Shown: one piece after another, positions 7,186 to 35,782 of the stretch | Layout of the letters: each line of letters begins with the position of its first letter | Numbering within the stretch: the stretch's first letter is position 1 | Assembly (NCBI RefSeq): GCF_044324785.1 | Contig: NZ_CP172127.1 | Strand: one strand, 5' to 3' | Origin: Escherichia coli | GTDB lineage: Bacteria > Pseudomonadota > Gammaproteobacteria > Enterobacterales > Enterobacteriaceae | DNA: 64,000 nt | Notes under the pieces: generated by a model | The model's input: the letters and a program-made list of their open reading frames with translations, nothing else | Databases searched by the model: none | What the model was told of the DNA's origin: nothing | Translations under genes and position numbers: made by a program

Positions 7186-8036
7186 AAGGGAGATGAAAAA
7201 GGCAATAGCAGAACTGAGTGACAGTGAAACCATTCTGGCGTACAGGGTTGGATGGTGAAACTGATAAAAAACCCCCTCTGAAATTCTGTCAGAGGGGCTA
7301 GTCAATAAGGGAATAATATTCAACATGAAGATGTCTTCTGGGAATGTTTATATAGCAAATGCTTTCACTCCGGTAATTAATTTCCGTGATTAACTGCTTT
7401 CGATCAATAAAGGAATTGCAAAAGTGTGATCTTGTTCACGACATCGTGGATAATAATATGCCTGATGTCTGAATCCGGAAACAGTGCTCTGGCGGGTTTC
7501 ATGTGAAGTTGACGGATAAAAAATCCGCACGACCAGACAGACGTGCGGTTTACGAAATTCGTAACAAGAGGCTTTTCTACGGATCACGTGGTGCGTGCCA
7601 CGTGAAATTTTTGTAGCGCAAAATGTGTGATGTGTAAATACAAGGAAGGAAAAAAGTTAAATCGGTGGAAGTCCATACCTGCCACGTGTACGTCTGCATT
7701 CCTCGTTTTGAACAGAATTCTCACCAGACATCGTGAATTTCTCATTCAATCATCAGAGATATTAACCAGGATTTTTATTGTTTTGTGATATCAGCAGTGC
7801 AGGTATACAGACATTAAAGTAATCAGGTTTATTATAACCACCTTTACAAAGTTGTATGTGTTTATAATTTAAGGATTTTAATGCCAGTCGTTTTCTGCTG
7901 CTTAAATTGAGGTCGCATATTATACACAATAATATTCCTGGCATTATTAAATTAATAAAAGAGGATTCTTATCACTGTATTTTTGCTCCGCACTACCGTT
8001 CTGGCTGGTGAAGTAATAATACAGGAGAATAACAGA

Positions 8037-9233
<1,197 letters not shown>

Positions 9234-18969: not shown

Positions 18970-19559
18970 GCCATGTGAATCTGTCGGCTACCGCCATTAG
19001 TGACGGAATTTTCTGTGGGGCAGCGTACCAATGGCATTCGGTTAAGTTCTTGCTGGAGCATCAAAAGAGTTCCAGCGCGTTCTGGGCCGTACATATTTTC
19101 GTGGGTAACACCTCCCTGGCCTTACTCGCTGAGTCATACAACTGCGATCGATTCAGATGCCATTTTGCAATCAGCCTCTCAGAAAGAGCGCAACAGAATG
19201 ATTTTAAATGTTTTCCTGTTACCCGAATCAGTAAAGACAAGTACCTCACTACGAGAAACAAGCAGTTTTTGAAATTAAAATTTTGTTTATTTCTACTACT
19301 ACCGATGAAAACGTTATTATCTTAATAATTAATGTCATTTCAGGATATCCATGTAAGGTTAAGTAATAATATATGAGCCTGTATTTTTATTTTACATCTT
19401 TCTCACTCTGTGAATGAAAATCTTCAATAGAAAATTTGATTTGAATAATTTATATAACTCTTCTATATTACATCAATGCCGATAGAAATCGTAAAAAGCT
19501 TCGTTTTCATAAAAATCTCTTTCAATAATATTTGTAGCTGGACCAGCCCCTTGAAACGC

Positions 19560-20720
19560 CAGATAGTGGATGTATCTTAAAATAAGAGACAGGCTTGGAT
19601 ATATGTCTGACACTGGTTCTAATTTTGAGATGACTGGAACTTTGCCGGGGCTGGAGCTTCGTAAACGTAAAACTCCTCAGGAAAAAATTGGCATTATTCA
19701 GCAGACAATGGAGCCTGGCATGGCGGTGTCACATGTGGCGCGTTTGCGTTGTATTCAGCCCTGCCTGTTGTTTAAGTGGAAAAACAATCTCTGGAAGGAA
19801 GTCTCACTGCTGTTGCTTCAGGAGAGGGTGTCGTTCCTGCCTCAGAACTGCCTGCCGCTATAAAACAAATAAAAGAGTTACAGCTCTTGCTGGGTAAAAA
19901 ACCATGGAAGTTTAGATCCTCAAAGAAGTGGGTGGTGGAGTATGCGCAATCGCGAAAATGGATAGCGCATGTGCCCTTGTTACCTTCGGACAAGGAATAG
20001 CCCCGGTAAGCCGTGTTCTGGGCGATACTCAGGCGGCAGTCCCTAAATGAAGGACTACCGTTAGTGAATGCAAAGCGCGTTTACCGGATAATGAGCGAAA
20101 ATATCCTGTTGTTACATGACAAACCATCACGACTGCAGCGGGAACATAAAGGCCGAATATCGGTAAGGAAAGCGACCAGCGTTGATGTTCTGATGGCTTT
20201 GAGTTCGGTTGCGATGATGGCGAAAAAGTCCGGGTTACGTTCGCCCTGGACTGTTGCGATCGTGAAGCTATCGACTGGGCATCCAATACGGGAGGTTACA
20301 ATAAAGCGACAGTGCAGGATGTGATGTTAGGAGCGATAGAAAAACTCTTTGGCGATAAAGTACCGGAACAGTCCATCCGGTGGTTGACAGATAACGGTTC
20401 AGCGTATAGAGCGCATGAAACACGGCAGTTCGCCAGAGAGTTGGATCTGGAGCCCTGCACAACGGCAATCAGCAGCTCTCAGAGTAATGGAATGGCAGAA
20501 AGGTTAGTGAAAACGATGAAGGAAGACTACATTGCGTTCATACCGAAACCGAATGTAATAACGGCATTGCATAACCTTGCATAGGCGTTCGAGAATTACA
20601 ATGAGAACCACCCGCATAGTGCGTTAGGTTATCTCTCACCACGGGAATATCGATGTCAGCGGATAACGTCACCTTAGATGTAGCAGTTGCCAAACAGTGA
20701 CTCAAGGGCAGGCTTACCGC
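19560..20720 (+). mobile_element. IS2-like (IS3-family) element remnant with degraded orfA/orfB
   Basis: Fragments RKRKTPQEKIGIIQQTMEPGMAVSHVARL...[28 protein letters not shown] (InsC-like) and ...NAKRVYRIM...[14 protein letters not shown]...[25 protein letters not shown] (InsD-like), broken by stops and frameshifts. Confidence 0.7.
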
Positions 20721-23624: not shown

Positions 23625-24038
23625 TAATACTATTCCTGCCCTGTAATTTACGGGCAGGGTATATCAACCGGAAATAGCCTACTGACATCCATGTATAAAG
23701 CCACATAATTATTTTGTTGATGTATCTTACCTAATACGTAAGCGTAAAGCCAATGCCGTCTGTAACTCCTGATCCTTGCAGACTAAATGTAAGCGCTCCT
23801 TCTGTGCCGTCTTGTGGTGGTTGTCCTGTCTGGCAACAATCGCGTCCATCTATTGATGGACACGAATGATGAATTCTCAGACAACAAAAGATATCACCGG
23901 CTTTCGCTCTTATTTTCCAGATGTATTGCGACTAATATTCGAAGAGCAATTATCTGTTCGGGCTATCGCACTGGAGCAGTTAGGCCTCAGTCATTCCACC
24001 GTTCATAATATCTTTCAACGGTTTAATGCCTCTGGCAT

Positions 24039-24111
24039 GTAAGCGTAAACCGACCGTTGTATTGACGCTTATTTATAGGGGAGAACTACGTTCCATGGCA
24101 GGAGTTCGTCA
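24039..24111 (-). mobile_element. IS66-family terminal fragment (duplicate of the 24994-25066 tip)
   Basis: GTAAGCGTAAACCGACCG... plus about 55 bp identical or near-identical to the end of the IS66 copy at 24994. Confidence 0.55.
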
Positions 24112-24182
24112 GTAAGCGTACAGCCTGAACCGTCTGGTCAGAATCTGACGCATTAGACAAAGTGGTGTCCACAAAATAAGTA

Positions 24183-24584
24183 GTGGGAACCAAAGTGTCA
24201 GATATGCAGAAAAATGTGACTCCCGGCAGGCGAAAAGGCTGCCCTAATTATCCTCCCGAATTTAAACAGCTGCTCGTTGCTGCCTCCTGTGAACCCGGGA
24301 TATCCATCTCAAAACTTGCTCTTGAAAATGGCATTAACGCCAATCTGTTGTTCAAATGGCGACAACAATGGCGCGAGGGAAAGCTGCTATTACCTTCTTC
24401 AGAGAGCCCCCAGCTACTTCCTGTGACTCTCGATGCAGCTGCCGAACAGCCAGAATCGCTCGCAGAGGACCCGGAAACCCTCAGTATCAGCTGTGAGGTA
24501 ACGTTCCGGCACGGGACGCTCCGCTTCAATGGCAATGTCAGCGAAAAGCTCCTGACTCTGCTGATACAGGAACTGAAACGATGA
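24183..24584 (+). CDS. tnpA: IS66-family accessory protein TnpA (orfA)
   Basis: 133 aa; ...ISKLALENGINANLLFKWRQQW motif; preceded by IS66 IR GTAAGCGTACAGCC at 24112. Confidence 0.8.
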   Translation: MGTKVSDMQKNVTPGRRKGCPNYPPEFKQLLVAASCEPGISISKLALENGINANLLFKWRQQWREGKLLLPSSESPQLLPVTLDAAAEQPESLAEDPETLSISCEVTFRHGTLRFNGNVSEKLLTLLIQELKR

Positions 24585-24928
24585 TCCCGTTACCTTCCGG
24601 GACCAAAATTTGGCTGGTTGCCGGTATCACCGATATGAGAAATGGCTTCAACGGCCTGGCTGCGAAAGTACAGACGGCGCTGAAAGACGATCCCATATCC
24701 GGCCATGTTTTCATTTTCCGGGGCCGCAGCGGCAGTCAGGTTAAACTGCTGTGGTCCACCGGTGACGGGCTGTGCCTCCTGACCAAGCGGCTGGAGCGTG
24801 GGCGCTTCGCCTGGCCGTCAGCCCGTGATGGCAAAGTGTTCCTTACGCAGGCGCAGCTGGCGATGCTGCTGGAAGGTATCGACTGGCGACAGCCTAAGCG
24901 GCTGCTGACCTCCCTGACCATGCTGTAA
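24581..24928 (+). CDS. tnpB: IS66-family TnpB (orfB)
   Basis: 115 aa; MIPLPSGTKIWLVAGITDMRNGFNGLAAKV typical of IS66 orfB; the transposase orfC is missing. Confidence 0.8.
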   Translation: MIPLPSGTKIWLVAGITDMRNGFNGLAAKVQTALKDDPISGHVFIFRGRSGSQVKLLWSTGDGLCLLTKRLERGRFAWPSARDGKVFLTQAQLAMLLEGIDWRQPKRLLTSLTML

Positions 24929-25023
24929 ATCTCTTTATCCTGGTTGTCACAGAATAAGCCCGGTAAAATACGGGCTTATGAACGACATCTCTTGTAAGCG
25001 TCAACGGAGCACCGTATTGACGC

Positions 25024-26616
25024 TTATTTATTGGTGAGTACTACGTTCCATGGCAGGAGTTCGTCAACACAGTTGGAGGGCCATTCCGGCAGTACGCTCA
25101 GAATATGGCGCAGATACGCTTCCGGATCGATACCGTTCAGACGGCAGGTGCCGATCAGCCCGTACAGCAGTGCTCCACGCTCGCCGCCGTGATCGCTACC
25201 GAAGAACACGTAATTTTTCTTTCCGAGACAGACTGCACGAAGCGCTCTTTCCGCTGTGTTATTGTCCGCTTCTGCCAAACCATCATCACTGTAATAACAG
25301 AGGGCGTCCCACTGATTCAGTACATAGCTGAACGCTTCGCCCAGTCTGGATTTTTTCGACAGCGTGCCATTCTTCTCCACCATCCATTCATGCAGCGACG
25401 TCAGTAACGCTTTGCTTCGCTGCTGCCTGGCTGCAAGACGCTCTGACTCTGGTAATCCCCGTATTTCATCCTCGATGGCGTACAGTTCACTGATTCACTT
25501 CAGGGCTTCTTCTGCCGTCGCACTTTTGCTGCTGATGTATACATCGTGGATTTTTCGCCGGGCATGGGCCCAGCACGCAACTTCTGTCAGTGCACCACCT
25601 TCACGTTCTGCACTGAACAACCTGTCGTAACCTGTGAACGCATCCGCCTGCAGGATACCCCGGAAGGGGCGAAGGTGTTGCTCCGGGTGTTTCCCCTGCC
25701 GGTTCGGCGAGTACGCGAACCAGACCGCTGGAGGAGATGACGAACCCACATTGCGATCATCCCGGACATACGTCCAGATACGCCCTGTTTTCGCCTTTTT
25801 CTGACCCGGTGCCAGTACCTTTACCGGTGTGTCATCAGTGTGAACCTTGCGGGTGTTCATTACATAACGGTACAGGGCATCATTCACCGGTGTCATTAAC
25901 TGGCAGCACGCGTCAACCCAGTTGGAGAGTAAGGCCCGGCTCAGTTCGACACCCTGGCGGGCAAAGATTTCACTCTGACGATACAGTGGCAGATGTTCGC
26001 AGTATTTTCCCGTTAACACGCGGGCAAGTAATCCGGGGCCCGCGATACCACGCTCTATCGGGCGGGACGGCGCCGGTGCTTCAACAATACAGTCACATTT
26101 TGTACAGGCTTTTTTTACCCGTTCTGTGCGGATCACTTTCAGGGCACTGCTCACCAGTTCCAGCTGTTCAGCGCTGACTTCCCCCAGATAATCCAGCTCA
26201 CCGCCACACTCCGGGCAACAGCTTTCTTCTGGCTCCAGGCGGTGTATTTCACGGGGAAGGTGTGCCGGTAACGGACGACGATGGCGCGACTGTCGCAACT
26301 GGCGGGGAACCTGAGGATCGTCTTCCCGCCCACTGTAACGATCGCTGTCCTGTTCACGTTGTTTCAGCAGAGCCTCAGCCAGTTCAACTTCACGACGCAG
26401 TTTTTCAGAACGGGTACCGAACAGCATCCGGTGCAGTTTTTCTATCTGAGCCCGCAGATGTTCTATTTCCCGTTCATCTTCTTCGATCTTTTCTTCGGCA
26501 CGTGCCAGTGCAGAGCGCAGGAAGGCCTCCGTCTCTTCAACCAGACTCAGTTGCTGGTCTTTCTGACGGAGCTGGCTTTCCAGTTCTGCAATGCGAATGA
26601 GGTATTTCTGACTCAT
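25024..26616 (-). pseudogene. tnpC: IS66-family transposase orfC, split into two ORFs
   Basis: 373-aa N-terminal and 119-aa C-terminal ORFs in different frames, both with IS66 transposase sequence (coiled-coil N-terminus, CxxC zinc motifs, DDE region). Confidence 0.7.
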
Positions 26617-26646
26617 GGCCGTTTTTATAATGCGGCCAGGCGTTTT

Positions 26647-26997
26647 TTACAACATTGTCAGTGCGTTAAGGCGGAATGTTTTTGGCTGACGCCAGTCCAG
26701 CTTATCGAGGAGCATTGCCAGTTGCGAGCGGGTAATGGATACCTTGCCGTCACGTACCGCAGGCCAGATAAACTGGCCTTCCTCCAGGCGTTTGGTGAAC
26801 AGGCACAGACCATCAGCATCAGCCCAAAGAATTTTGACGGTGTCACCCCGTCGGCCACGGAAGATAAACAGGTGACCGGAGAAGGGATTATCATTCAGCA
26901 CATGTTGTACCTGTTCTCCCAGTCCGTTGAAGGATTTACGCATATCGGTAACGCCGGCAACGAGCCAGATACGGGTACCTGATGGGAGTGAGATCAT
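26647..26997 (-). CDS. tnpB: IS66-family TnpB (orfB)
   Basis: 115 aa; paralog of 24581-24928 (MISLPSGTRIWLVAGVTDMRKSFNGL). Confidence 0.8.
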   Translation of the reverse strand: MISLPSGTRIWLVAGVTDMRKSFNGLGEQVQHVLNDNPFSGHLFIFRGRRGDTVKILWADADGLCLFTKRLEEGQFIWPAVRDGKVSITRSQLAMLLDKLDWRQPKTFRLNALTML

Positions 26998-27419
26998 CTT
27001 CCCCTCCCGGTCAGTTCACGGATCAACACTGTGAGCAGCTCTGGCGATGGATTTTCCAGCGTCATGTTACCGTGACGGAATTCCACCTTGCAGGAACTGG
27101 CACTGACTCTGGTCTGAGTGGAAGTGGATAAAGACGGCGCAATGGCCGCCACAGGTTCTTTCTGCTCATCCGGCGTTATTTCTACAGGTAATAATTCAAC
27201 GCCAGTGTCAGAAGAGGTCGTTACCGGAAGACGCCGCGAAACACGCCCTTCGTTCTGCCAGAGCCTGAGCCATTTGAAAATAACATTATCATTGACGCCA
27301 TTTTCACGTGCAATCTGTGCAACACAAGCTCCAGGTTGTGATGCCAGTTCCACCATACGAAGTTTGAATTCATTCGAATAGTTTTTACGAGGTTCTTTTC
27401 GCCAGTCCTGTAATTCCAT
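26994..27419 (-). CDS. tnpA: IS66-family TnpA (orfA)
   Basis: 141 aa; ...FKLRMVELASQPGACVAQIARENGVNDNVIFKWLRLWQNEGR. Confidence 0.8.
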   Translation of the reverse strand: MELQDWRKEPRKNYSNEFKLRMVELASQPGACVAQIARENGVNDNVIFKWLRLWQNEGRVSRRLPVTTSSDTGVELLPVEITPDEQKEPVAAIAPSLSTSTQTRVSASSCKVEFRHGNMTLENPSPELLTVLIRELTGRGR

Positions 27420-27504
27420 ACTTAGATGTCCGTCTATATCAGATGGGCGTCTAAGTTACCAATTCTCGTCTGATGGCTACATACGGCGGTCAGTTTACGC
27501 TTAC

Positions 27505-28740
27505 CTTTATCCCGACAGACGACGTATATTTACCAGTAAGGCCAACCCGGTTGCGCCCTTTGAACCAGAAGTCAAACGTCAGGCTGTCATGGCACTCTGT
27601 ACACGACAAGTATCAGCCAGTGAAATCGCCAGGCGTATTGGTGTCAGTCGTGCGGTATTGTATAAATGGAAAGATAAAATTATCGGCAACAGTGCTTACC
27701 AGACTATGCGTAAACATAACGAACCTTCCCTGGAGGCAGAACGCGATGCGTTGCGGGAGGAAGTCGCCCGACTGAATCAGGAAATACGCCGCCGGCAGAT
27801 GGAGCTGGATATTCTGAAAAAGGCGGAGGAAATCATAAAAAAAGACCCGGGCATCAGTATCAGTCACCTGAACAACAGAGAGAAAACGAAGATCGCTGAT
27901 GCCCTGAGACAAACATATCCCCTGACAGAATTACTGCATGTTCTGGGCCTTGCCCGTAGCAGTTATTTTTATCACCGGGCTGCACTGAAAGCCGGTGATA
28001 AATACGCCACGATACGTACGATGCTGACAGATATATTTAACAGTAATTACCAGTGTTATGGCTATCGTCGCCTGCATGCGATGCTCAGGCATGAGGGGGG
28101 GCGGCTATCAGAAAAGGTTGTACGCAGACTTATGGTGGAAGAACAGCTTGTCGTCAGCCGTAACCGTCGTCGCCGCTACAGCTCATATTGCGGAGAAATC
28201 GGACCGGCTCCGGATAACCTTATCGCCAGAGATTTTAAGGCGGAGCAACCTAATCAGAAATGGCTGACAGATATCACGGAGTTCCACCTCCCTGCAGGTA
28301 AAGTCTGGCTATCATCGGTGGTGGACTGCTTCGATGGAAAAGTTGTGAGCTGGTCTCTCAGTACACGCCCCGATGCTGAACTGGTCAACACTATGCTGGA
28401 TAGCGCTGTCGAAACGTTAAATGCTGGCGAACGACCGGTGATACACAGTGACAGAGGTGGGCATTATCGCTGGTCAGGCTGGCTGGAAAGAGTGAATGCA
28501 GAAGGTCTTATTCGCTCAATGTCCCGCAAAGGATGTTCACCTGATAATGCGGCATGCGAAGGCTTTTTCGGCAGACTGAAAACGGAAATGTATCATGGGC
28601 GTAAATGGTCGGGCATCACGCCAGAAAAGTTCATGCAGCAAGTGGATACTTACATCAGATGGTATAACGAGCGGCGTATAAAATTATCGCCGGGTGCAGT
28701 CAGCCCCAAAATGTACCGCCAACAATGCGGGCTGGAATGA
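27505..28740 (+). mobile_element. IS3-family transposase gene, 5'-truncated by the IS66 insertion
   Basis: Reading frame opens right at the IS66 end without the usual N-terminal HTH start; contains a DDE integrase core (WLTDITEF, HSDRGGHYRW, CSPDNAACEGFFGRLKTE); longest Met-initiated ORF 27589-28740. Confidence 0.7.
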
Positions 28741-29047
28741 TAAAGCAGTCCAGGAAATCGTCCGCATCCCCAGAACGGTCAAACATCGTGGCGTTGACAA
28801 CGGGTTCCTGAGTCCGGTGAAGCGCCGGTTACTGGAAAATGTTGTGTACGTCATAACAGAAACGGAGAGAAAAACGGCGATGCAAATCAGGCGGAGAAGG
28901 GTGTATCAGCGGTTACTGAAGGTTGACCCGCTGAAGTGCATCCTGTGCGGAGGTCAGATGCGGTTTACGGGGCTGAAGCGGGGCTACCGTCTGGCAGAGC
29001 TGGTCATGATGCATGAGCCACTGGCACGACAGCGGGTATACAGCTGA
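28694..29047 (+). other. Possible transposase C-terminal fragment (CxxC zinc motif), family uncertain
   Basis: 117-aa ORF ...CILCGGQMRF... lying among IS debris; no confident family assignment. Confidence 0.25.
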
Positions 29048-29631
29048 GAGCCGCAGAGGGGAAGTTGCGTCCATTTTTTGAGGAATGGAGCAAAAAATCA
29101 TCACAGATATAAAAAATCAATCAATGAAAGCCATTTAATTGCCGGTGCATTGTGGATGCAGTCCTCATGGTACGTAACCAGAGTTGAATAAACATCCATT
29201 TTTTTGTGTTTTTTTAACCTCCCCGGGTTTTTAATTCCTGTCGATTAAAAGTGTTAGATTATTTGGTTAAGAGTTCTCTCGTCCTATTTATTCAGGCGTT
29301 ATCACGGATATGCAGATCGCTAAGTCAGTTGTAAGAAAACCAGACAGTGCACATCATTATACCTAGGTCTTCTCTGGAAAAATACTTAGGAATAATTTAT
29401 GTAAAACAGGTTGTCGTCTTCATGATTTAAACGCAGTACATATATATACTCTATAATAAATACAGGGAGTATCACGAGACGTCTGGATAAGAGGAATAAC
29501 CAGAATAAATTGGTAAGGAATAAAGACACTTATTTCTATTGAGAAAAAACATTCATCCTGATGTGATTAGTATCAATGAAATAATGTGCTTGTATGGTTG
29601 ATAAAAAATGCATCACTAAAGAAAAAACAGT

Positions 29632-32600
29632 ATGAATAAGAATATACGAATTTTACAATTTCTGGTCAGTATACTTTATTCTGTGCAGTCTCATTTTTCT
29701 GGTGCGCAAACAATACAACTGAATGGTAATGGTATACCTGAAAGTATAACCAGGAGTATTACAGGTGTTGATGGAAACGCGGCGCTTAATATCAGCGTGC
29801 CGTATAAAACAAGTTATACTCAAAATATACTATCTGTTGAAAGCAGTATTAACATCAAAGGAGGAACAAGCAATACATCAATCGGTGGTGCAGGTGTCTA
29901 CGGTGAAAACTTTACGCTAAATAATAATGGTAGTGTTTGGGGAGGAGATGGATATAATGGTGGAATTGCTGTTAGTGGCAACAAAATATCTATAAACAAT
30001 TACAGAAATGTATATGGGGGTAATGGTCTTGGTGGCTCAGGAAGTAGCGGAGGTGCAGGGTTAAGCGGGGATGATATTATAGTTGATAATTACAGAAGTA
30101 TATACGGAGGTGATGATGTAGGTGGGACAGGTGGTTCCGGTGTAACCGGTAGCAATATTACAGTGCATAATTCCGGAGGAATATTGGGCGGTAATGGCGT
30201 AAACGGTGGTGATGGTATTAATGGTAGTAATCTTTTCATTACTAACGACAACATGATATCTGGAGGATATGGAATAAAACAAGGGGGAGATGCTATTTCT
30301 GGAAATCAAATCACTTTGAATAATAACGGTATTGTTCAGGGGGGATATGGCCCCGACGGTGGTTGCTCTGTTTATGGAGAAGATATCCATATTAATAATC
30401 ATGGTAATCTTTCAGGATTATATAATAGCCAAAAAGATGCTTATAATACATCAATAATTTTTTCTGGCGGGTATAATTCATTAGATATTTATTCAGATTC
30501 TGTGATTAATGGTGATATTAAACTAGCTAGTATACCTGTTAATGGTACAAATGAATTAATTATTAAAAACATCAATAACGCAACAGCAATTAATGGTGGG
30601 CTAATGATTGGGAATGGCTCATCTGTTTATCTGTCAGGCAAGAACTCCATTTTTAACGGAAATATAAGTATTGATGAAGACGCATCTATGAACCTGTCTG
30701 TAGGAAATGCTAATGTTCACGCAAATACTATTACATTAAAAAGTGATTCATGGCTTAATATAGACACATCAATTAAGAACTGGACTCAGGACTATTACAC
30801 ATTATTGTCGTCAGACACAGGTATCTCGATCGCTGATAATAGTCACATTGTACAATACAATGTATTACTGACAGAAGGTGCTGAAAGTTATGTTTATACG
30901 TCTTTAAATGACGACGATAACAAACTGATATCCATGCTGAGATGGAATAATACAAAAGGGATGGGATATGGAACCTTTAATATAGAAAAAGATGCCACTC
31001 TGAACATAGGCGTTTCTCTTTCCGATAATCTTTCACCTTTATTATATGATGGCTGGGACGGCAAAAGTCTGACAAAATCAGGTAATGGTACTCTTATACT
31101 TTCTGCAACAAACAATTATACAGGAAATACAGAGGTTAAATCTGGCGTATTAATTCTTGCTGCACCTGATGCTCTTGGTCGGACTGAGTATTTATATTTA
31201 TCCCGTGGCGCAGAACTGGATATGAATGGGTATCCTCAGACAATAAGCAAACTACTGACGGCTGCAGGCTCTGTGCTGAACATTCATGGCGGAAGTCTGA
31301 TACTGAATAATGGAGGAGAATCTGCAGGTACTATTGCAGGGGATGGTTCTCTGAACATAAATGGGGGAATGCTTGATATAACGGGTAATAATCGTAATTT
31401 TTCCGGTGTTTTTACCGTGAATAAGGGGGCTCATTTGGCTGTATCCACGGCTGATAATCTGGGGACAGCCTTTGTTGATAACTATGGCACATTAACTCTG
31501 AACAGTACATCAGCATGGCAGCTTACCAACAATATCAGTGGTTATGGTAATGTTCGCAAGACGGGAGCAGGTGCACTGAACATTAGCGATAACGCAAAAT
31601 GGACCGGGATGACAGATATTATTCAGGGGACAGTGATACTGGGGAACGCAGATTCACCGGTGATGCTCGGCAGTAACCAGGTCATTGTTGAAGAGCAGGG
31701 CAAACTCTCCGGGTTTGGGGGCGTTGCAGGAAATCTGAGCAATAGTGGTATAGTCGATCTCACTACATATATGCCGGGTAATATACTGACTGTCGGAGGG
31801 AATTACACTGGCAGAAATGGACTTATTCTCCTCCAGACAGAAACAGGTGGTGACAATTCGAAAACAGATCGTCTGGTGATTAAAGGTAATGCCAGTGGCC
31901 GTACCCGTGTCGCTGTTACTCAGGCCGGTGGTACTGGTGCAGAGACACTTAATGGGATTGAAGTGATTCACGTCAGTGGCAATGCTGATAATGCTGAATT
32001 CATTCAGACGGAACGTATTACAGCCGGAGCTTATGATTACATACTGAAACGTGGTCAGGGGATTAACAGCACTAACTGGTATCTGATTAGCAGAAAAGAC
32101 ATTCCTGTACCACAACCTGAAGCTGTACCGGAAAGCCATGATAATAATTTGCGTCCTGAGGCAGGTAGCTATGTTGCCAGTATTGCTGCTGCAAATAATC
32201 TGTTTGTAACGAATCTGTATGAACGACAGGGACAGGAGTTGTATATCAGCCACATGACAGGAGAAGAAAATGAAGCAGGTATCTGGATGTATAATAAAGG
32301 AAAACATAATCGCTGGCGTGACAACAGTAGTCAGCTGAGAACCCGGGGGAATAGCTACGTTGTGTTAATAGGGGGAGATATAGCTCAGTGGAGCCTGAAT
32401 GGTACCGATCGCTGGCATACAGGTATGATGGCTGGCTATGGTCATAATAATAACAGTACGAATGCCCTGAGCACCGGATACCATTCGGAAGGAAGAATGA
32501 ATGGATACACAGCGGGTCTTTATGCAACATGGTATGCCAATGATGAAACACACAATGGTTCTTATCTTGATAGCTGGCTGCAATACAGCTGGTTTGATAA

Positions 32601-33129
32601 TCATATAAATGGAGAACGGCTGCCTGCTGAGTCATGGAAGTCAAAAGGGTTTACGGTATCTCTGGAAGCAGGATATTCATGGAAGGCTGGAGAGTTTACC
32701 GACAATTACAAGGGAAGTCATGAATGGTATGTTCAGCCGCAGCTTCAGGTTGTCCGGATGAATGTAAAATCAGACAAATATCATGAAAGTAACGGAACCA
32801 GTATTGAAAATACCGGTAACGGAAATATTCTCACCCGCCTGGGAGCAAGAACATGGCTTACCAGCAAAAACGGTAAAAATACGCGGTATGCGGTTCCGTT
32901 CAGACCATTTGTGGAGGCACACTGGTTGCACAATAGTCGTGTTTTCGGCACCAGTATGAATGGTGTAAGTATATACCAGGATGGTGCGCGTGATATCGGA
33001 GAAATAAATGGTGGTGTTGTGGGAATGATAACACCAGAAGTAGCATTCCGGGCTGATGCAGGCATTCAACTTGGAGAACATGGATACCATAATACATCTG
33101 CCATGTTGAGTGTGGAATATCGTTTCTGA
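29632..33129 (+). CDS. Classical (type Va) autotransporter, AIDA-I-like passenger with Gly-rich beta-helix repeats
   Basis: 1165 aa; N-terminal leader, long passenger with repeated GG(x)G(x)G beta-strand repeats, C-terminal beta-barrel translocator ending ...SVEYRF; gene and upstream region visibly AT-rich. Confidence 0.85.
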   Translation: MNKNIRILQFLVSILYSVQSHFSGAQTIQLNGNGIPESITRSITGVDGNAALNISVPYKTSYTQNILSVESSINIKGGTSNTSIGGAGVYGENFTLNNNGSVWGGDGYNGGIAVSGNKISINNYRNVYGGNGLGGSGSSGGAGLSGDDIIVDNYRSIYGGDDVGGTGGSGVTGSNITVHNSGGILGGNGVNGGDGINGSNLFITNDNMISGGYGIKQGGDAISGNQITLNNNGIVQGGYGPDGGCSVYGEDIHINNHGNLSGLYNSQKDAYNTSIIFSGGYNSLDIYSDSVINGDIKLASIPVNGTNELIIKNINNATAINGGLMIGNGSSVYLSGKNSIFNGNISIDEDASMNLSVGNANVHANTITLKSDSWLNIDTSIKNWTQDYYTLLSSDTGISIADNSHIVQYNVLLTEGAESYVYTSLNDDDNKLISMLRWNNTKGMGYGTFNIEKDATLNIGVSLSDNLSPLLYDGWDGKSLTKSGNGTLILSATNNYTGNTEVKSGVLILAAPDALGRTEYLYLSRGAELDMNGYPQTISKLLTAAGSVLNIHGGSLILNNGGESAGTIAGDGSLNINGGMLDITGNNRNFSGVFTVNKGAHLAVSTADNLGTAFVDNYGTLTLNSTSAWQLTNNISGYGNVRKTGAGALNISDNAKWTGMTDIIQGTVILGNADSPVMLGSNQVIVEEQGKLSGFGGVAGNLSNSGIVDLTTYMPGNILTVGGNYTGRNGLILLQTETGGDNSKTDRLVIKGNASGRTRVAVTQAGGTGAETLNGIEVIHVSGNADNAEFIQTERITAGAYDYILKRGQGINSTNWYLISRKDIPVPQPEAVPESHDNNLRPEAGSYVASIAAANNLFVTNLYERQGQELYISHMTGEENEAGIWMYNKGKHNRWRDNSSQLRTRGNSYVVLIGGDIAQWSLNGTDRWHTGMMAGYGHNNNSTNALSTGYHSEGRMNGYTAGLYATWYANDETHNGSYLDSWLQYSWFDNHINGERLPAESWKSKGFTVSLEAGYSWKAGEFTDNYKGSHEWYVQPQLQVVRMNVKSDKYHESNGTSIENTGNGNILTRLGARTWLTSKNGKNTRYAVPFRPFVEAHWLHNSRVFGTSMNGVSIYQDGARDIGEINGGVVGMITPEVAFRADAGIQLGEHGYHNTSAMLSVEYRF

Positions 33130-33150
33130 TGTGTCGGTAATGACTCCAAC

Positions 33151-33654
33151 TTATTGATAGTGTTTTATGTTCAGATAATGCCCGATGACTTTGTCATGCA
33201 GCTCCACCGATTTTGAGAACGACAGCGACTTCCGTCCCAGCCGTGCCAGGTGCTGCCTCAGATTCAGGTTATGCCGCTCAATTCGCTGCGTATATCGCTT
33301 GCTGATTACGTGCAGCTTTCCCTTCAGGCGGGATTCATACAGCGGCCAGCCATCCGTCATCCATATCACCACGTCAAAGGGTGACAGCAGGCTCATAAGA
33401 CGCCCCAGCGTCGCCATAGTGCGTTCACCGAATACGTGCGCAACAACCGTCTTCCGGAGCCTGTCATACGCGTAAAACAGCCAGCGCTGGCGCGATTTAG
33501 CCCCGACATAGCCCCACTGTTCGTCCATTTCCGCGCAGACGATGACGTCACTGCCCGGCTGTATGCGCGAGGTTACCGACTGCGGCCTGAGTTTTTTAAG
33601 TGACGTAAAATCGTGTTGAGGCCAACGCCCATAATGCGGGCTGTTGCCCGGCAT
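33151..33654 (-). CDS. insB: IS1 InsB (made as InsAB by frameshift)
   Basis: 167-aa ORF with IS1 InsB sequence; overlaps insA as in IS1. Confidence 0.85.
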
Positions 33655-33848
33655 CCAACGCCATTCATGGCCATATCAATGATTTTCTGGTGCGTACCGG
33701 GTTGAGAAGCGGTGTAAGTGAACTGCAGTTGCCATGTTTTACGGCAGTGAGAGCAGAGATAGCGCTGATGTCCGGCGGTGCTTTTGCCGTTACGCACCAC
33801 CCCGTCAGTAGCTGAACAGGAGGGACAGCTGATAGAAACAGAAGCCAC
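33573..33848 (-). CDS. insA: IS1 InsA
   Basis: 91 aa [43 protein letters not shown]... Confidence 0.9.
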
Positions 33849-34320
33849 TGGAGCACCTCAAAAACACCATCATACACTAAATCAGTAAGTTGGCAGCATC
33901 ACCCGTTCATTTTCTGAGCCTGTAAAACATGTGGTGATATAGTCTGAGAGCATAAAAGTTGAGATTCTGTGTATCAAGTCCTGTCTTGGCACCGAATGAA
34001 TATTGCTTACGAAGCCCCTTCATGCTTTCCTTGAGAACAATAATTTTATCTTTATGTGAATCTCATTTTTTATAATGATGTCAGATGATTGAAATGCTAA
34101 ATTATATCTGAATCAACTTTTCCTTTGCTAAAGGTATAGAAATAACTGCAAGGCTGTATTTTGTAATTGCCAATTTAAAAATGTCAATTTGTTTTTAATT
34201 ATGTTTTTGTAATAAGTTTGAAGACACAAAAAATAATATAATAACAAAAATCCTCCAGCCTTGTAGGCCAGAGGATAAAATACTTAATTGAGGAAAACAT
34301 CAGGGAAAAGTATTTCTGAC

Positions 34321-35505
34321 TTAACTTTCCCGGCTGGAGAGTGAATCAATGTAATCAGCGTACCATTGCATCATTTCACGGCGGCCATCGAGATACAGGG
34401 CATGATTATAGGTACCCCTGATGGAATTTTTATCCACATGAGCTAACTGCATTTCAATCCAGGCAGAATTAAAGCCCTGTTCGTGCAGAATGGTACTCAT
34501 GGTGTGACGAAAACCATGACCGGTTGCCCTGCCATCGTAACCGATACGTTTGAGCACCATATTGATGCTGGCTTCGCTCATTGGCTTGTTGATATCACAA
34601 CGTCCCGGAAAAACCAGCCGGTATTGCCCGGAGAAAGTTTTGAGCTGCAGCAGAATGTCAGTGGCCTGTCGTGACAGTGGTACGACATGTTTACGTCGCA
34701 TTTTCATGCGGCTTTCAGGGATTGTCCACAGTGCATTATCAAAATCAATTTCTGACCATTCAGCGGACCGTAGCTCAATGGTTCTGAGACCTGTCAGAAG
34801 CAGCAGATTTGTCGCCATGCGGGTAACAGGACTGCCATGATACTCAGCGAGCTTCCGGAGAAAAACAGGGAGCTCATCTGCTCTCAGGTGGGGGAAATGT
34901 GCAGCTTTTGGCGCCGCCAGCGTACTGGTCAGTTCAGATGCCGGATTGACAGTGGCTCGTCCGGTGGCGATGGCATAACGAAAAATCTGATTACAGTATT
35001 GACGCACCTTACGAAGTTTTTCCAGCGAGCCACGTTTTTCTATGCGGCGCAGAATTTCCAGCATTTCCAGCGGGAGGATATCCGTAACGCTTCGTTTGCC
35101 CAGATACGGGAAAATATCTTTATCCAGCGCTTCCAGTACGCTTCTGGCGTAACTTTCAGACCATGACAAAGATTTATGCTGGTGCCATTCCGTAGCGAGG
35201 GCATGGAACGTATTGGTGGCAGAGATTTTCTGAGTGAGTTTTTCCTTTCGCTTCTTTTCGCCCGGGTCACCACCTTCGGAGATGATTTTTCGGGCATCGT
35301 CGCGTTTGATTCTGGCCTCAGCAAGGGAGACGTCGGGATAGACGCCGAGGGCCAGTTTTTTCTCTTTTCCTGCTATCCGGTATTTAAGCCGCCAGTAGCG
35401 GGCACCCGTGGTTTTTACCAGCAGATATAAACCACGTTCGTCAGAGAGTTTATAGTCTTTTTCTTTAGGTCTGGCTGTTTCGACCTGTCTGGCTGTAAGT
35501 GCCAT
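34321..35505 (-). CDS. int: P4-type tyrosine integrase
   Basis: About 394 aa from MALTARQVETARPKEKDYKLSDERGLYLLVK (P4-int N-terminus); C-terminal catalytic region with GHGFRHT and Tyr; next to the tRNA-Phe 3' fragment. Confidence 0.9.
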   Translation of the reverse strand: MALTARQVETARPKEKDYKLSDERGLYLLVKTTGARYWRLKYRIAGKEKKLALGVYPDVSLAEARIKRDDARKIISEGGDPGEKKRKEKLTQKISATNTFHALATEWHQHKSLSWSESYARSVLEALDKDIFPYLGKRSVTDILPLEMLEILRRIEKRGSLEKLRKVRQYCNQIFRYAIATGRATVNPASELTSTLAAPKAAHFPHLRADELPVFLRKLAEYHGSPVTRMATNLLLLTGLRTIELRSAEWSEIDFDNALWTIPESRMKMRRKHVVPLSRQATDILLQLKTFSGQYRLVFPGRCDINKPMSEASINMVLKRIGYDGRATGHGFRHTMSTILHEQGFNSAWIEMQLAHVDKNSIRGTYNHALYLDGRREMMQWYADYIDSLSSRES

Positions 35506-35680
35506 ATGGGGGCTCCTGAAACTGACTGAACACAATGAGCCCCCACCGGGGCCCCCAATGAACGCTTGATTGAGAGAGAGTTCAGTAGAGTCTGGTGGAG
35601 TTCAGAATGTTCAGATTGCTTGTAACGATGTGATTATACTTGAGTTTCGTGGAGTTCGGGAGATGAATCTGGAAGTGAAA

Positions 35681-35730
35681 GTGGTGCCCGGACTCGGAAT
35701 CGAACCAAGGACACGGGGATTTTCAATCCC
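35681..35730 (-). other. Partial tRNA-Phe gene, 3' 50 nt only (displaced attachment-site copy)
   Basis: Minus-strand sequence equals the 3' 50 nt of E. coli tRNA-Phe (as I recall it) including anticodon loop and CCA; identity stops where the 5' half should be. Confidence 0.8.
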
Positions 35731-35782
35731 CGTGCCATAATTGGCTGTGTCAGTTGGTTACACACCATTGAGGTGTGTACTA

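Follow-up and report, generated by a model that had tools for sequence, protein, structure and literature searches.

Probable IS1-mediated rearrangement downstream of aatA, a gene for an autotransporter adhesin, in an Escherichia coli genomic island

Introduction

The gene aatA (avian pathogenic Escherichia coli [APEC] autotransporter adhesin A) was described by Dai et al. in 2010 as an open reading frame (ORF) of 3,498 bp with a 124-kDa product, and was found in strain IMT5155, on plasmid pAPEC-O1-ColBM and in E. coli B (PMC2944236). The presence of IS1 in the 3' flank of aatA in IMT5155 and the idea that the gene spreads by flanking insertion sequence (IS) elements were published in the same study, which typed three flanking variants (fecI, ykgN and eitD) and left more than half of the aatA-positive strains of the original survey untypable by flanking polymerase chain reaction (PMC2944236). 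Here we analyse a stretch of 64,000 nucleotides of E. coli contig NZ_CP172127.1 (assembly GCF_044324785.1), called the window throughout, in which an AT-rich autotransporter gene is followed at a distance of 6 bp by an IS1 element. With high confidence we read this locus as the known gene aatA, carried on a small, AT-rich portable module in a mosaic, tRNA-linked island, where an IS1-mediated event joined the cargo to the integrase end.

Several described loci can be compared with the window. AatA of IMT5155, encoded in pathogenicity island (PAI) I5155, represents the same gene, and the two loci share the upstream IS3 and IS91 remnants, the 600-bp upstream region and IS1 6 bp behind the stop codon. 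They differ in what lies to the right of IS1: IMT5155 continues with ykiE-fecIRABCDE via a chimeric IS1A/IS1F element, the window with the truncated gene of a tetratricopeptide repeat (TPR) protein, a spacer, a Phe-type integrase and an integrative and conjugative element (ICE) of the SPI-7 type, a context that is not among the three variants of Dai et al. The 'variant 2' gene of E. coli B (BL21/REL606) and the plasmid copies differ from the window at three to four amino acids and have the same 6 bp after the stop codon. BL21 and the plasmids, however, have kept the native 3' flank and lack IS1 at this position (+6), and the BL21 promoter region resembles that of the window only to about -246. 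The selC islands exemplified by CLSC36 (about 134 complete genomes) share cargo, IS1 and spacer with the window almost without difference, but the integrase of the window is not located beside tRNA-Sec. In K-12, finally, the fec locus is flanked by IS1F, an element of the same family, and is likewise a case of IS1 without target duplication bridging unrelated DNA; the window, by contrast, has an IS1A-type element that is joined to an island integrase module.

Functional data on AatA come from IMT5155: transcript as well as protein were detected in this strain, and a stretch of 99 bp upstream of the ATG is enough for expression; with an antibody the protein was detected in IMT5155 and APEC O1 (PMC2944236). 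When aatA was cloned with only these 99 bp, a fim-negative K-12 strain adhered 1.9-fold better to DF-1 chicken fibroblasts, and anti-AatA antibodies slightly lowered adhesion of IMT5155 (PMC2944236). FNR binds the aatA promoter in electrophoretic mobility shift assays and activates it directly, with a predicted site, ATGTTTTTTCTCAA, at -79 (PMC5481319).

Results

The gene, its upstream region and the junction with IS1 comprise the following features:

27505..29050, plus strand: upstream portion of the portable aatA module, made up of what is left of IS3-family and IS91-family transposase genes
29051..29631, plus strand: AT-rich upstream and promoter region of aatA (34.6% GC)
29632..33129, plus strand: aatA coding sequence, an ORF of 3,498 bp including the stop codon (1165 aa)
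33130..33135, no strand: TGTGTC, the surviving 6 bp of the native aatA 3' flank, where homology to all IS1-free aatA loci ends
33136..33903, minus strand: IS1 of the IS1A type, 768 bp, 767/768 identical to K-12 IS1A
33573-33848 and 33151-33654, minus strand: insA and insB, respectively, convergent with aatA
33904..34320, minus strand: first 7 nt (ATGAACG, 33904-33910) of the truncated TPR-protein gene, then a spacer of 31% GC, as seen by comparison with L004 and L012

The encoded protein is identical to that of CLSC36 and matches AatA of IMT5155 at 1164/1165 residues, the single difference being S199G. Three residues differ from BL21 (1162/1165 identical) and four from a poultry plasmid copy (1161/1165). 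Over the 600 bp upstream of the ATG there are 0 mismatches to IMT5155. Because of the near-identity of the proteins, the same ORF length and the identical upstream region, the gene is assigned by sequence to aatA, a known adhesin gene of poultry-pathogenic E. coli and thus not a new one. The initial annotation of this DNA, which had been made from the letters alone, described an AT-rich autotransporter gene of foreign origin with IS1 behind it. Its observation proved right in every element, while aatA itself went unrecognised there and was found here by its near-identity to IMT5155.

The stop codon TGA of aatA ends at 33129 and IS1 starts at 33136, 6 bp later. This element, the sole IS1 copy in the window, has the hallmarks of IS1, i.e. 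terminal inverted repeats of about 23 bp (GGTAATGACTCCAACTTATTGATAG and GGTGATGCTGCCAACTTACTGATTT) and overlapping insA and insB reading frames. A target-site duplication, that is a direct repeat of 8-9 bp around IS1, is absent, just as had been noted at the outset: the adjoining 9-mers, TGATGTGTC on the left and CGTTCATTT on the right, agree at 2/9 positions. The two flanks have different sources. To the left, IS1-free copies on the BL21 chromosome (L002) and on plasmid pLH10-b-1-A (L003) continue with TTTACATTATAAATATCC... after +6 and then run into IS256-like remnants; a continuation with CGTTCATTTTCTGAG... was seen in neither of these two relatives. To the right, the sequence CGTTCAT is the reverse complement of the first seven bases, ATGAACG, of the TPR-protein gene. 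In a selC island (L004) and a pheU island (L012) this right-flank sequence runs into an intact TPR-protein gene beside the same spacer and integrase, and the right half of the junction adjoins integrases in islands without aatA. The native aatA 3' flank (TTTACATTATAAATATCC...), a second IS1 and the remaining TPR gene were all sought in the window and none was found. Judged by these comparisons, IS1 bridges two unrelated loci, and the native aatA 3' flank and the body of the TPR gene have been lost. The hybrid flanks account for the missing target duplication. They also agree with the earlier proposal that an IS1-mediated rearrangement removed the original downstream DNA, as the 3' flank of BL21 and the plasmids is absent from the window and the right flank begins at nucleotide 7 of the TPR gene.

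The same facts bear on the alternative that IS1 simply inserted into the native 3' flank of aatA and that its 9-bp duplication was later lost or degraded by point mutation, no rearrangement having taken place. IS1 prefers AT-rich targets, and both sides of the element are AT-rich (31% GC at 33904-34320 on the right). A simple insertion is nevertheless not what flanks from two unrelated loci indicate: the right flank consists of the start of the TPR gene and an integrase spacer that also occur in islands without aatA, the native downstream DNA is missing from the window, and a match at 2/9 positions gives no sign of a degraded duplication. We therefore regard this explanation as very improbable.

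Hypothetical precursors were defined and sought in 5,426 complete E. coli genomes, which also served for all junction counts below. For the native aatA 3' flank the expected reciprocal junction would be IS1 followed by (TGATGTGTC)TTTACATTATAAATATCC; for the TPR gene, IS1 would form the reciprocal junction with CATAATCTATCGTTCATTT, the remainder of that gene. The product of a simple insertion behind aatA (IS1 right end, TGATGTGTC and BL21-type downstream DNA) gave no one-piece match in these genomes. No one-piece match was obtained there either for a simple IS1 insertion with 9-bp duplication in the TPR gene; three multi-piece matches had IS1 located elsewhere in that gene. A synthetic junction devoid of IS1 (500 bp from each side) retrieved no genome with both flanks contiguous.

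The aatA+6/IS1 junction occurs in 245/5,426 genomes, the IS1/TPR-nt7 junction in about 151, and both together in 134. By difference, about 111 genomes have only the former and about 17 only the latter. The left junction has at least three right-hand partners, namely the selC-type integrase, the Phe-type integrase of the window and, in IMT5155, the fec operon, with ykiE-fecIRABCDE lying behind this left junction.

Alignment of the IMT5155 element (L006 12601-13368) with the IS1 of the window and with K-12 IS1F identified it as an IS1A/IS1F chimera. Positions 1-613 are of the IS1A type found in the window, with 56 differences from IS1F and one from the window (position 275). In positions 642-768, IMT5155 matches IS1F at 16/17 sites at which it differs from the window, position 652 being private to IMT5155. 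The 120-bp right flank of the element is identical to K-12 IS1F-ykiE-fecI. This pattern is that of a homologous crossover inside the IMT5155 IS1, placed by the alignment between positions 613 and 642, and it demonstrates that the aatA-attached IS1 has recombined with another IS1 at least once.

How the junction in the window came about can be considered in this light. IS1 is known to generate adjacent deletions. An IS1 residing at one junction may thus have attacked the other site by intramolecular replicative transposition, upon which the intervening DNA would have been deleted as a circle and a single IS1 lacking a duplication would have stayed behind. CLSC36 and M25631H possess the same two junctions as the window and only one IS1 place in the whole genome, as such a deletion predicts. 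In strain BHD6 the IS1/TPR-nt7-integrase junction is kept and combined with a different left flank, which corresponds to window position 29080 with aatA inverted, and this fits repeated IS1 activity anchored on the integrase side. Yet deletion by homologous recombination between direct IS1 copies yields the identical product, the only event at this IS1 with a legible mechanism, that of IMT5155, is homologous recombination, and the occurrence of each junction without the other is easily explained by recombination between IS1 copies. Transposition is consequently a possible route, which we consider somewhat less likely than not.

The BHD6 locus deserves a separate description. Behind its inverted aatA lie 126 bp of native 3' flank and then a second IS1. 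On the chromosome (L007 3284-9000) this amounts to a minimal selC 'island' with the order IS1, 126 bp of native flank, aatA, IS1 and integrase, in which the outer IS1 truncates setC and the inverted IS1 copies give a layout resembling a composite transposon. We considered BHD6 as an inversion derivative of the arrangement in the window and rejected this because the 126 bp of native 3' flank are kept. Their retention points to derivation from a BL21-like layout. BHD6 is another, independent IS1-bounded layout.

In line with the claim that the gene and its upstream region are AT-rich, windowed GC values set the locus apart: the upstream region (581 bp) and aatA (41.4% GC) lie below the mean of 50.4% (sd 6.3) of 500-bp windows across the whole window. 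DNA to the left of the tract has 48.2% GC, that to the right of the integrase 54.5%. The low GC content of aatA is uneven, with 36.4% in the 5' half and 45.4% in the 3' half. The longest run below 40% GC spans 29001-31400, and shorter ones are present at about 3.1, 7.4, 9.7, 19.0 and 33.7 kb; the aatA tract is therefore a strong example of the mosaic composition of the island and not a unique one. The minimum of the window, 31.6% GC at 19201-19700, is below any value in the aatA tract and belongs to a low-GC stretch (19001-19800) between an ugpB-like gene and remnants of a PemK/MazF toxin gene.

A foreign origin of the AT-rich segment, as initially proposed, is borne out by its distribution. 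It forms a portable module with the order IS3', IS91', AT-rich promoter and aatA that recurs, more than 99% identical, in several chromosomal islands as well as on plasmids. Positions 27505-33135 are 99.84% identical to plasmid pLH10-b-1-A, and 23889-33903 are 99.74% identical to IMT5155. The 5' half of aatA was detected in 674/5,426 complete genomes (483 chromosomal and 236 plasmid places), and at least 80% of the AatA passenger is carried by 223 plasmids of PLSDB. Between 24500 and 28800, IS66-family copies are nested and inverted: a complete inverted IS66 interrupts remnants of tnpA and tnpB, and an IS3-family element in truncated form comes next. Part of this DNA, 25214-27505, recurs in rearranged form on the aatA plasmid pLH10-b-1-A.

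Beyond the spacer, the end of the island is marked by two features:

34321..35505, minus strand: P4-type tyrosine integrase, Phe-type allele (ORF, blastn)
35682..35731, minus strand: remnant of an attachment site that matches the 50 nt at the 3' end of tRNA-Phe exactly

In blastn searches, 34340-35760 is 99.5% identical to the TPR-int-tRNA-Phe (pheU) region of TUM1880 and 99.1% identical to CM2. The tRNA-Phe remnant constitutes the boundary between the aatA island and the SPI-7-type ICE, which begins directly behind this remnant, in tandem with the island (35682-64000), and runs past the right end of the window; ARAGORN and Rfam detected no complete tRNA in the window. Genes of the ICE encode ParA, a DnaB-PI helicase, ParB, DUF2786 and DUF2857 proteins, an STY4528-family protein, topoisomerase III and Ssb. 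The ICE also contains two adjacent STAXI RNAs (RF01728; 49955-50261, plus strand), which score 61.6 and 66.3 bits against a gathering threshold of 40.5 and are located near the ssb/topoisomerase region, as is typical of this motif.

Across its left 34.3 kb the window hardly differs from the selC island of CLSC36 (99.95% identity over 25.4 kb). The shared cargo includes a YadA-like gene, phosphotransferase system and transketolase genes, a gene for a TonB-dependent receptor and IS66 copies; in CLSC36, ireA is located just upstream of the counterpart of the window. Much of the island is also common to PAI I5155 of IMT5155. The spacer at 33904-34303 has 0 mismatches to CLSC36 and other selC-type islands. 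From 34304 on mismatches to the selC-type sequence rise, and at 34524 the alignment ends and gives way to the Phe-type integrase. A selC island as such was rejected for the window: tRNA-Sec is absent, similarity ends within the 3' end of the integrase gene, and the tRNA-Phe remnant and the ICE follow. These alignments suggest that selC-linked and Phe-linked islands exchanged cargo by recombination in the shared stretch of TPR gene, spacer and integrase 3' end.

A second adhesin gene of the same island, encoding the YadA-like trimeric autotransporter (7983-9233, plus strand), differs in length from its CLSC36 counterpart. An array of the hexamer CTCAGG at 8107-8152 (7.7 copies) is about 18 nt longer than in CLSC36, and a region further on is about 297 nt shorter, which suggests repeat-number variation in this gene.

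The domains of AatA were mapped to the following segments of the gene:

29632..29706, plus strand: Sec signal peptide, aa 1-25 (MNKNIRILQFLVSILYSVQSHFSGA), followed by QT (inspection of the translation)
29809..30441, plus strand: Gly-rich passenger repeats, about aa 60-270 (motif scan)
30760..31155, plus strand: IcsA-like central passenger with the VirG insertion domain (VID), aa 377-434, and the first PATR repeat, aa 480-508 (Pfam)
31780..32046, plus strand: type 1 autochaperone, the pertactin-like C-terminal end of the passenger, aa 717-805 (Pfam, PDB)
32281..33126, plus strand: translocator beta-barrel, aa 884-1165, ending ...EYRF (Pfam, TIGR01414, 4MEE)

An intact translocator had been postulated for this protein, and the C-terminal domain indeed matches known units to the last residue. 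PF03797 (Autotransporter) matches aa 884-1143 with positions 1-254 of the 255 in its model (E = 9.6e-35), TIGR01414 aa 716-1165 with positions 5-432 of 432 (E = 3.6e-96; 322.8 bits vs a cut-off of 16), and the AIDA-I transport unit 4MEE aligns end to end with the C-terminal 455 aa, through the terminal Phe (E = 1.4e-73). The autochaperone is recognised by the Pfam families AC_1 (aa 717-805; E = 6.1e-24) and Pertactin (aa 729-818; E = 7.9e-07) and by the corresponding region of IcsA (PDB 3ML3; E = 2.8e-24). By inspection, the signal peptide consists of a basic n-region (MNKNIR), a hydrophobic core and small residues at -3/-1, with predicted cleavage between SGA and Q; for AatA of IMT5155, a SignalP prediction has been published (PMC2944236). 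The order of signal peptide, passenger, autochaperone, barrel and terminal Phe is intact. With barrel, signal peptide and autochaperone all recognised in its sequence, AatA is assigned to the type Va (classical monomeric) autotransporters, AIDA-I type.

The passenger had been described as being built of Gly-rich beta-helix repeats. This is supported in part: some 210 N-terminal residues consist of Gly-rich repeats, and the middle is IcsA-like, with VID, PATR and autochaperone. The Gly-rich part comprises about seven units of 25-30 aa each of the form h-x-h-x-N-x-G-x-h-x-GG-x-G-x-x-GG, and Gly makes up 24% of aa 26-270 vs 9-16% of the remaining passenger. Modelled by AlphaFold from the single sequence, aa 26-480 form an all-beta structure of short, periodic strands; confidence is low, with a mean predicted local distance difference test (pLDDT) score of 57.9 and values of 60-82 within the Gly-rich stretch. 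A Foldseek search of PDB with this model returned no match at E <= 0.001; the best, weak and non-significant matches were the beta-helices of pertactin, tailspikes, IcsA and UpaB. For the middle and C-terminal passenger, a right-handed beta-helix may be expected from homology to the beta-helical IcsA passenger fragment 5KE1 (E = 2.5e-56 with the full protein, 2.5e-32 with the passenger alone). Pfam reports VID with E = 6.6e-07 and two PATR repeats (E = 8.7e-08 for the family).

The nearest named relative of the passenger is IcsA (VirG) of Shigella, which also has Gly-rich N-terminal repeats. In a tblastn search against plasmids, icsA of Shigella plasmids showed 35% identity over aa 201-549, and no icsA match was obtained over the N-terminal 200 aa of AatA. 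The similarity is thus low and partial, and nothing found here points to N-WASP binding, polar targeting or actin-based motility of AatA. Moreover, AatA is an extracellular adhesin of extraintestinal pathogenic E. coli encoded in chromosomal islands or ColV-type plasmid contexts, whereas IcsA is a factor of intracellular spread encoded on pINV. We thus classify AatA, on its sequence, as a relative of IcsA and not as a member of that family. The autochaperone, linker and barrel are homologous to those of the AIDA-I family (AIDA-I, MisL, ShdA, YfaL/EhaC, ECSE_1600), whereas the N-terminal passenger is unrelated. NCBIfam matches cover aa 582-1165, and since the equivalog scores are far below the cut-offs (e.g. 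493 vs 2335 and 357 vs 1297), AatA is not an ortholog of the AIDA-I, MisL, ShdA or YfaL equivalogs. A classification of 2022 places AatA, IcsA, MisL, ShdA, YfaL, EhaA and others in 'Group 8', the outer-membrane-anchored adhesins (PMC9289746).

In the promoter region the published FNR site is conserved at 29539-29552, as the reverse complement of ATGTTTTTTCTCAA. A second FNR/CRP-like palindrome, GTGAT-TAGT-ATCAA, is located at 29563-29576 (plus strand), 56-69 bp ahead of the ATG of aatA. With agreement at 9/10 positions of the FNR consensus TTGAT-N4-ATCAA, it fits better than the published predicted site and could be the real FNR (or a CRP-like) box. Consensus promoter and terminator scans around aatA gave nothing above the shuffled expectation.

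Whether the gene is functional was considered against the possibility that this copy is silent or decaying, for example because it is silenced by H-NS or deprived of 3' end signals by IS1. The GC content of the promoter region would make it a typical target of xenogeneic silencing, the native 3' flank has been lost, and in BL21, with a promoter identity of 70%, AatA was undetectable by western blot although the ORF is intact (PMC2944236). On the other hand, the ORF in the window is intact and one residue away from the IMT5155 allele, its 600-bp upstream region and the aatA+6/IS1 junction are identical to those of IMT5155, in which the gene is expressed, and a scan of the native BL21 3' flank found no intrinsic terminator, so that none was obviously removed by IS1. 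A silent copy is therefore unlikely. By analogy with IMT5155, which has the same junction and makes the protein, IS1 at +6 should not prevent expression of aatA.

Discussion

Taken together, we favour the view that a known virulence gene was attached to its present neighbourhood by IS1. An IS1-mediated event, either homologous recombination between two IS1 copies or a transpositional adjacent deletion, would have removed the native aatA 3' flank and the body of the TPR gene and fused the cargo that bears aatA to the end of the island with spacer and integrase. The IS1 at +6 would since have served as a portable stretch of homology.

Several points weigh against this view or limit its reach. 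The two mechanisms yield one and the same product and are indistinguishable here, as the IS1 of the window is uniformly of the IS1A type and displays no visible crossover. An ancestral IS1 with target duplication was found at neither site in the 5,426 genomes, and the order of events is accordingly a reconstruction. The window holds one IS1 only, so reciprocal junctions are beyond its reach. The exact join of aatA, IS1, Phe-type integrase and ICE occurred in no complete E. coli genome searched, and an assembly join is hence conceivable; the gradual loss of selC-type similarity between 34304 and 34524 suggests natural recombination of homologous island ends. As to the protein, the beta-helix fold predicted for the Gly-rich N-terminus is unconfirmed, given the mean pLDDT of 57.9 and the lack of Foldseek matches at E <= 0.001. 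Lastly, the published effect on adhesion is modest (1.9-fold, with slight inhibition by antibody), and function is assigned to the gene in the window by analogy.

With these reservations, a path from gene to surface can be outlined from general type Va biology and the work on IMT5155. Transcription would start no more than about 100 bp upstream of the ATG, under direct activation by FNR. The 25-aa Sec signal peptide would direct AatA to the periplasm, and the barrel (aa 884-1165) would insert into the outer membrane with the assistance of the beta-barrel assembly machinery (BAM). The passenger is expected to exit through or beside the barrel and to fold from the C- to the N-terminus, beginning at the autochaperone (aa 717-805), into a beta-solenoid, which would display the IcsA-like middle and the Gly-rich N-terminal repeats on the cell surface. 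There the protein may mediate adhesion to DF-1 cells and play the role in virulence that has been published for AatA. Surface display, adhesion to DF-1 cells and a contribution to virulence have reportedly been described for AatA of IMT5155 and APEC O1 (PMC2944236; Li et al., 2010).

A more far-reaching model, which we put forward tentatively and hold to be almost as probable as not, is that IS1A at +6 acts as a reusable recombination handle that shuttles aatA cargo among selC, pheU, the fec-bearing PAI I5155 and plasmids. The window would then represent an uncatalogued flanking variant, the ICE in tandem with it could co-mobilise aatA, and the chimeric IS1 of IMT5155 would be a footprint of the process. 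The hybrid flanks, the shared left junction with varied right-hand partners and the crossover in IS1 together account for the failure of flanking typing in over half of the aatA-positive strains.

Our study concerns a known virulence gene in an ordinary, IS-scrambled island, and its additions are incremental. They consist of the hybrid flanks that explain the missing duplication, the junction counts, the IS1A/IS1F chimera of IMT5155 and a flanking context beyond fecI, ykgN and eitD. Their use lies in the epidemiological typing of aatA contexts rather than in new biology: the locus illustrates how IS copies may let virulence modules hop between islands and plasmids.

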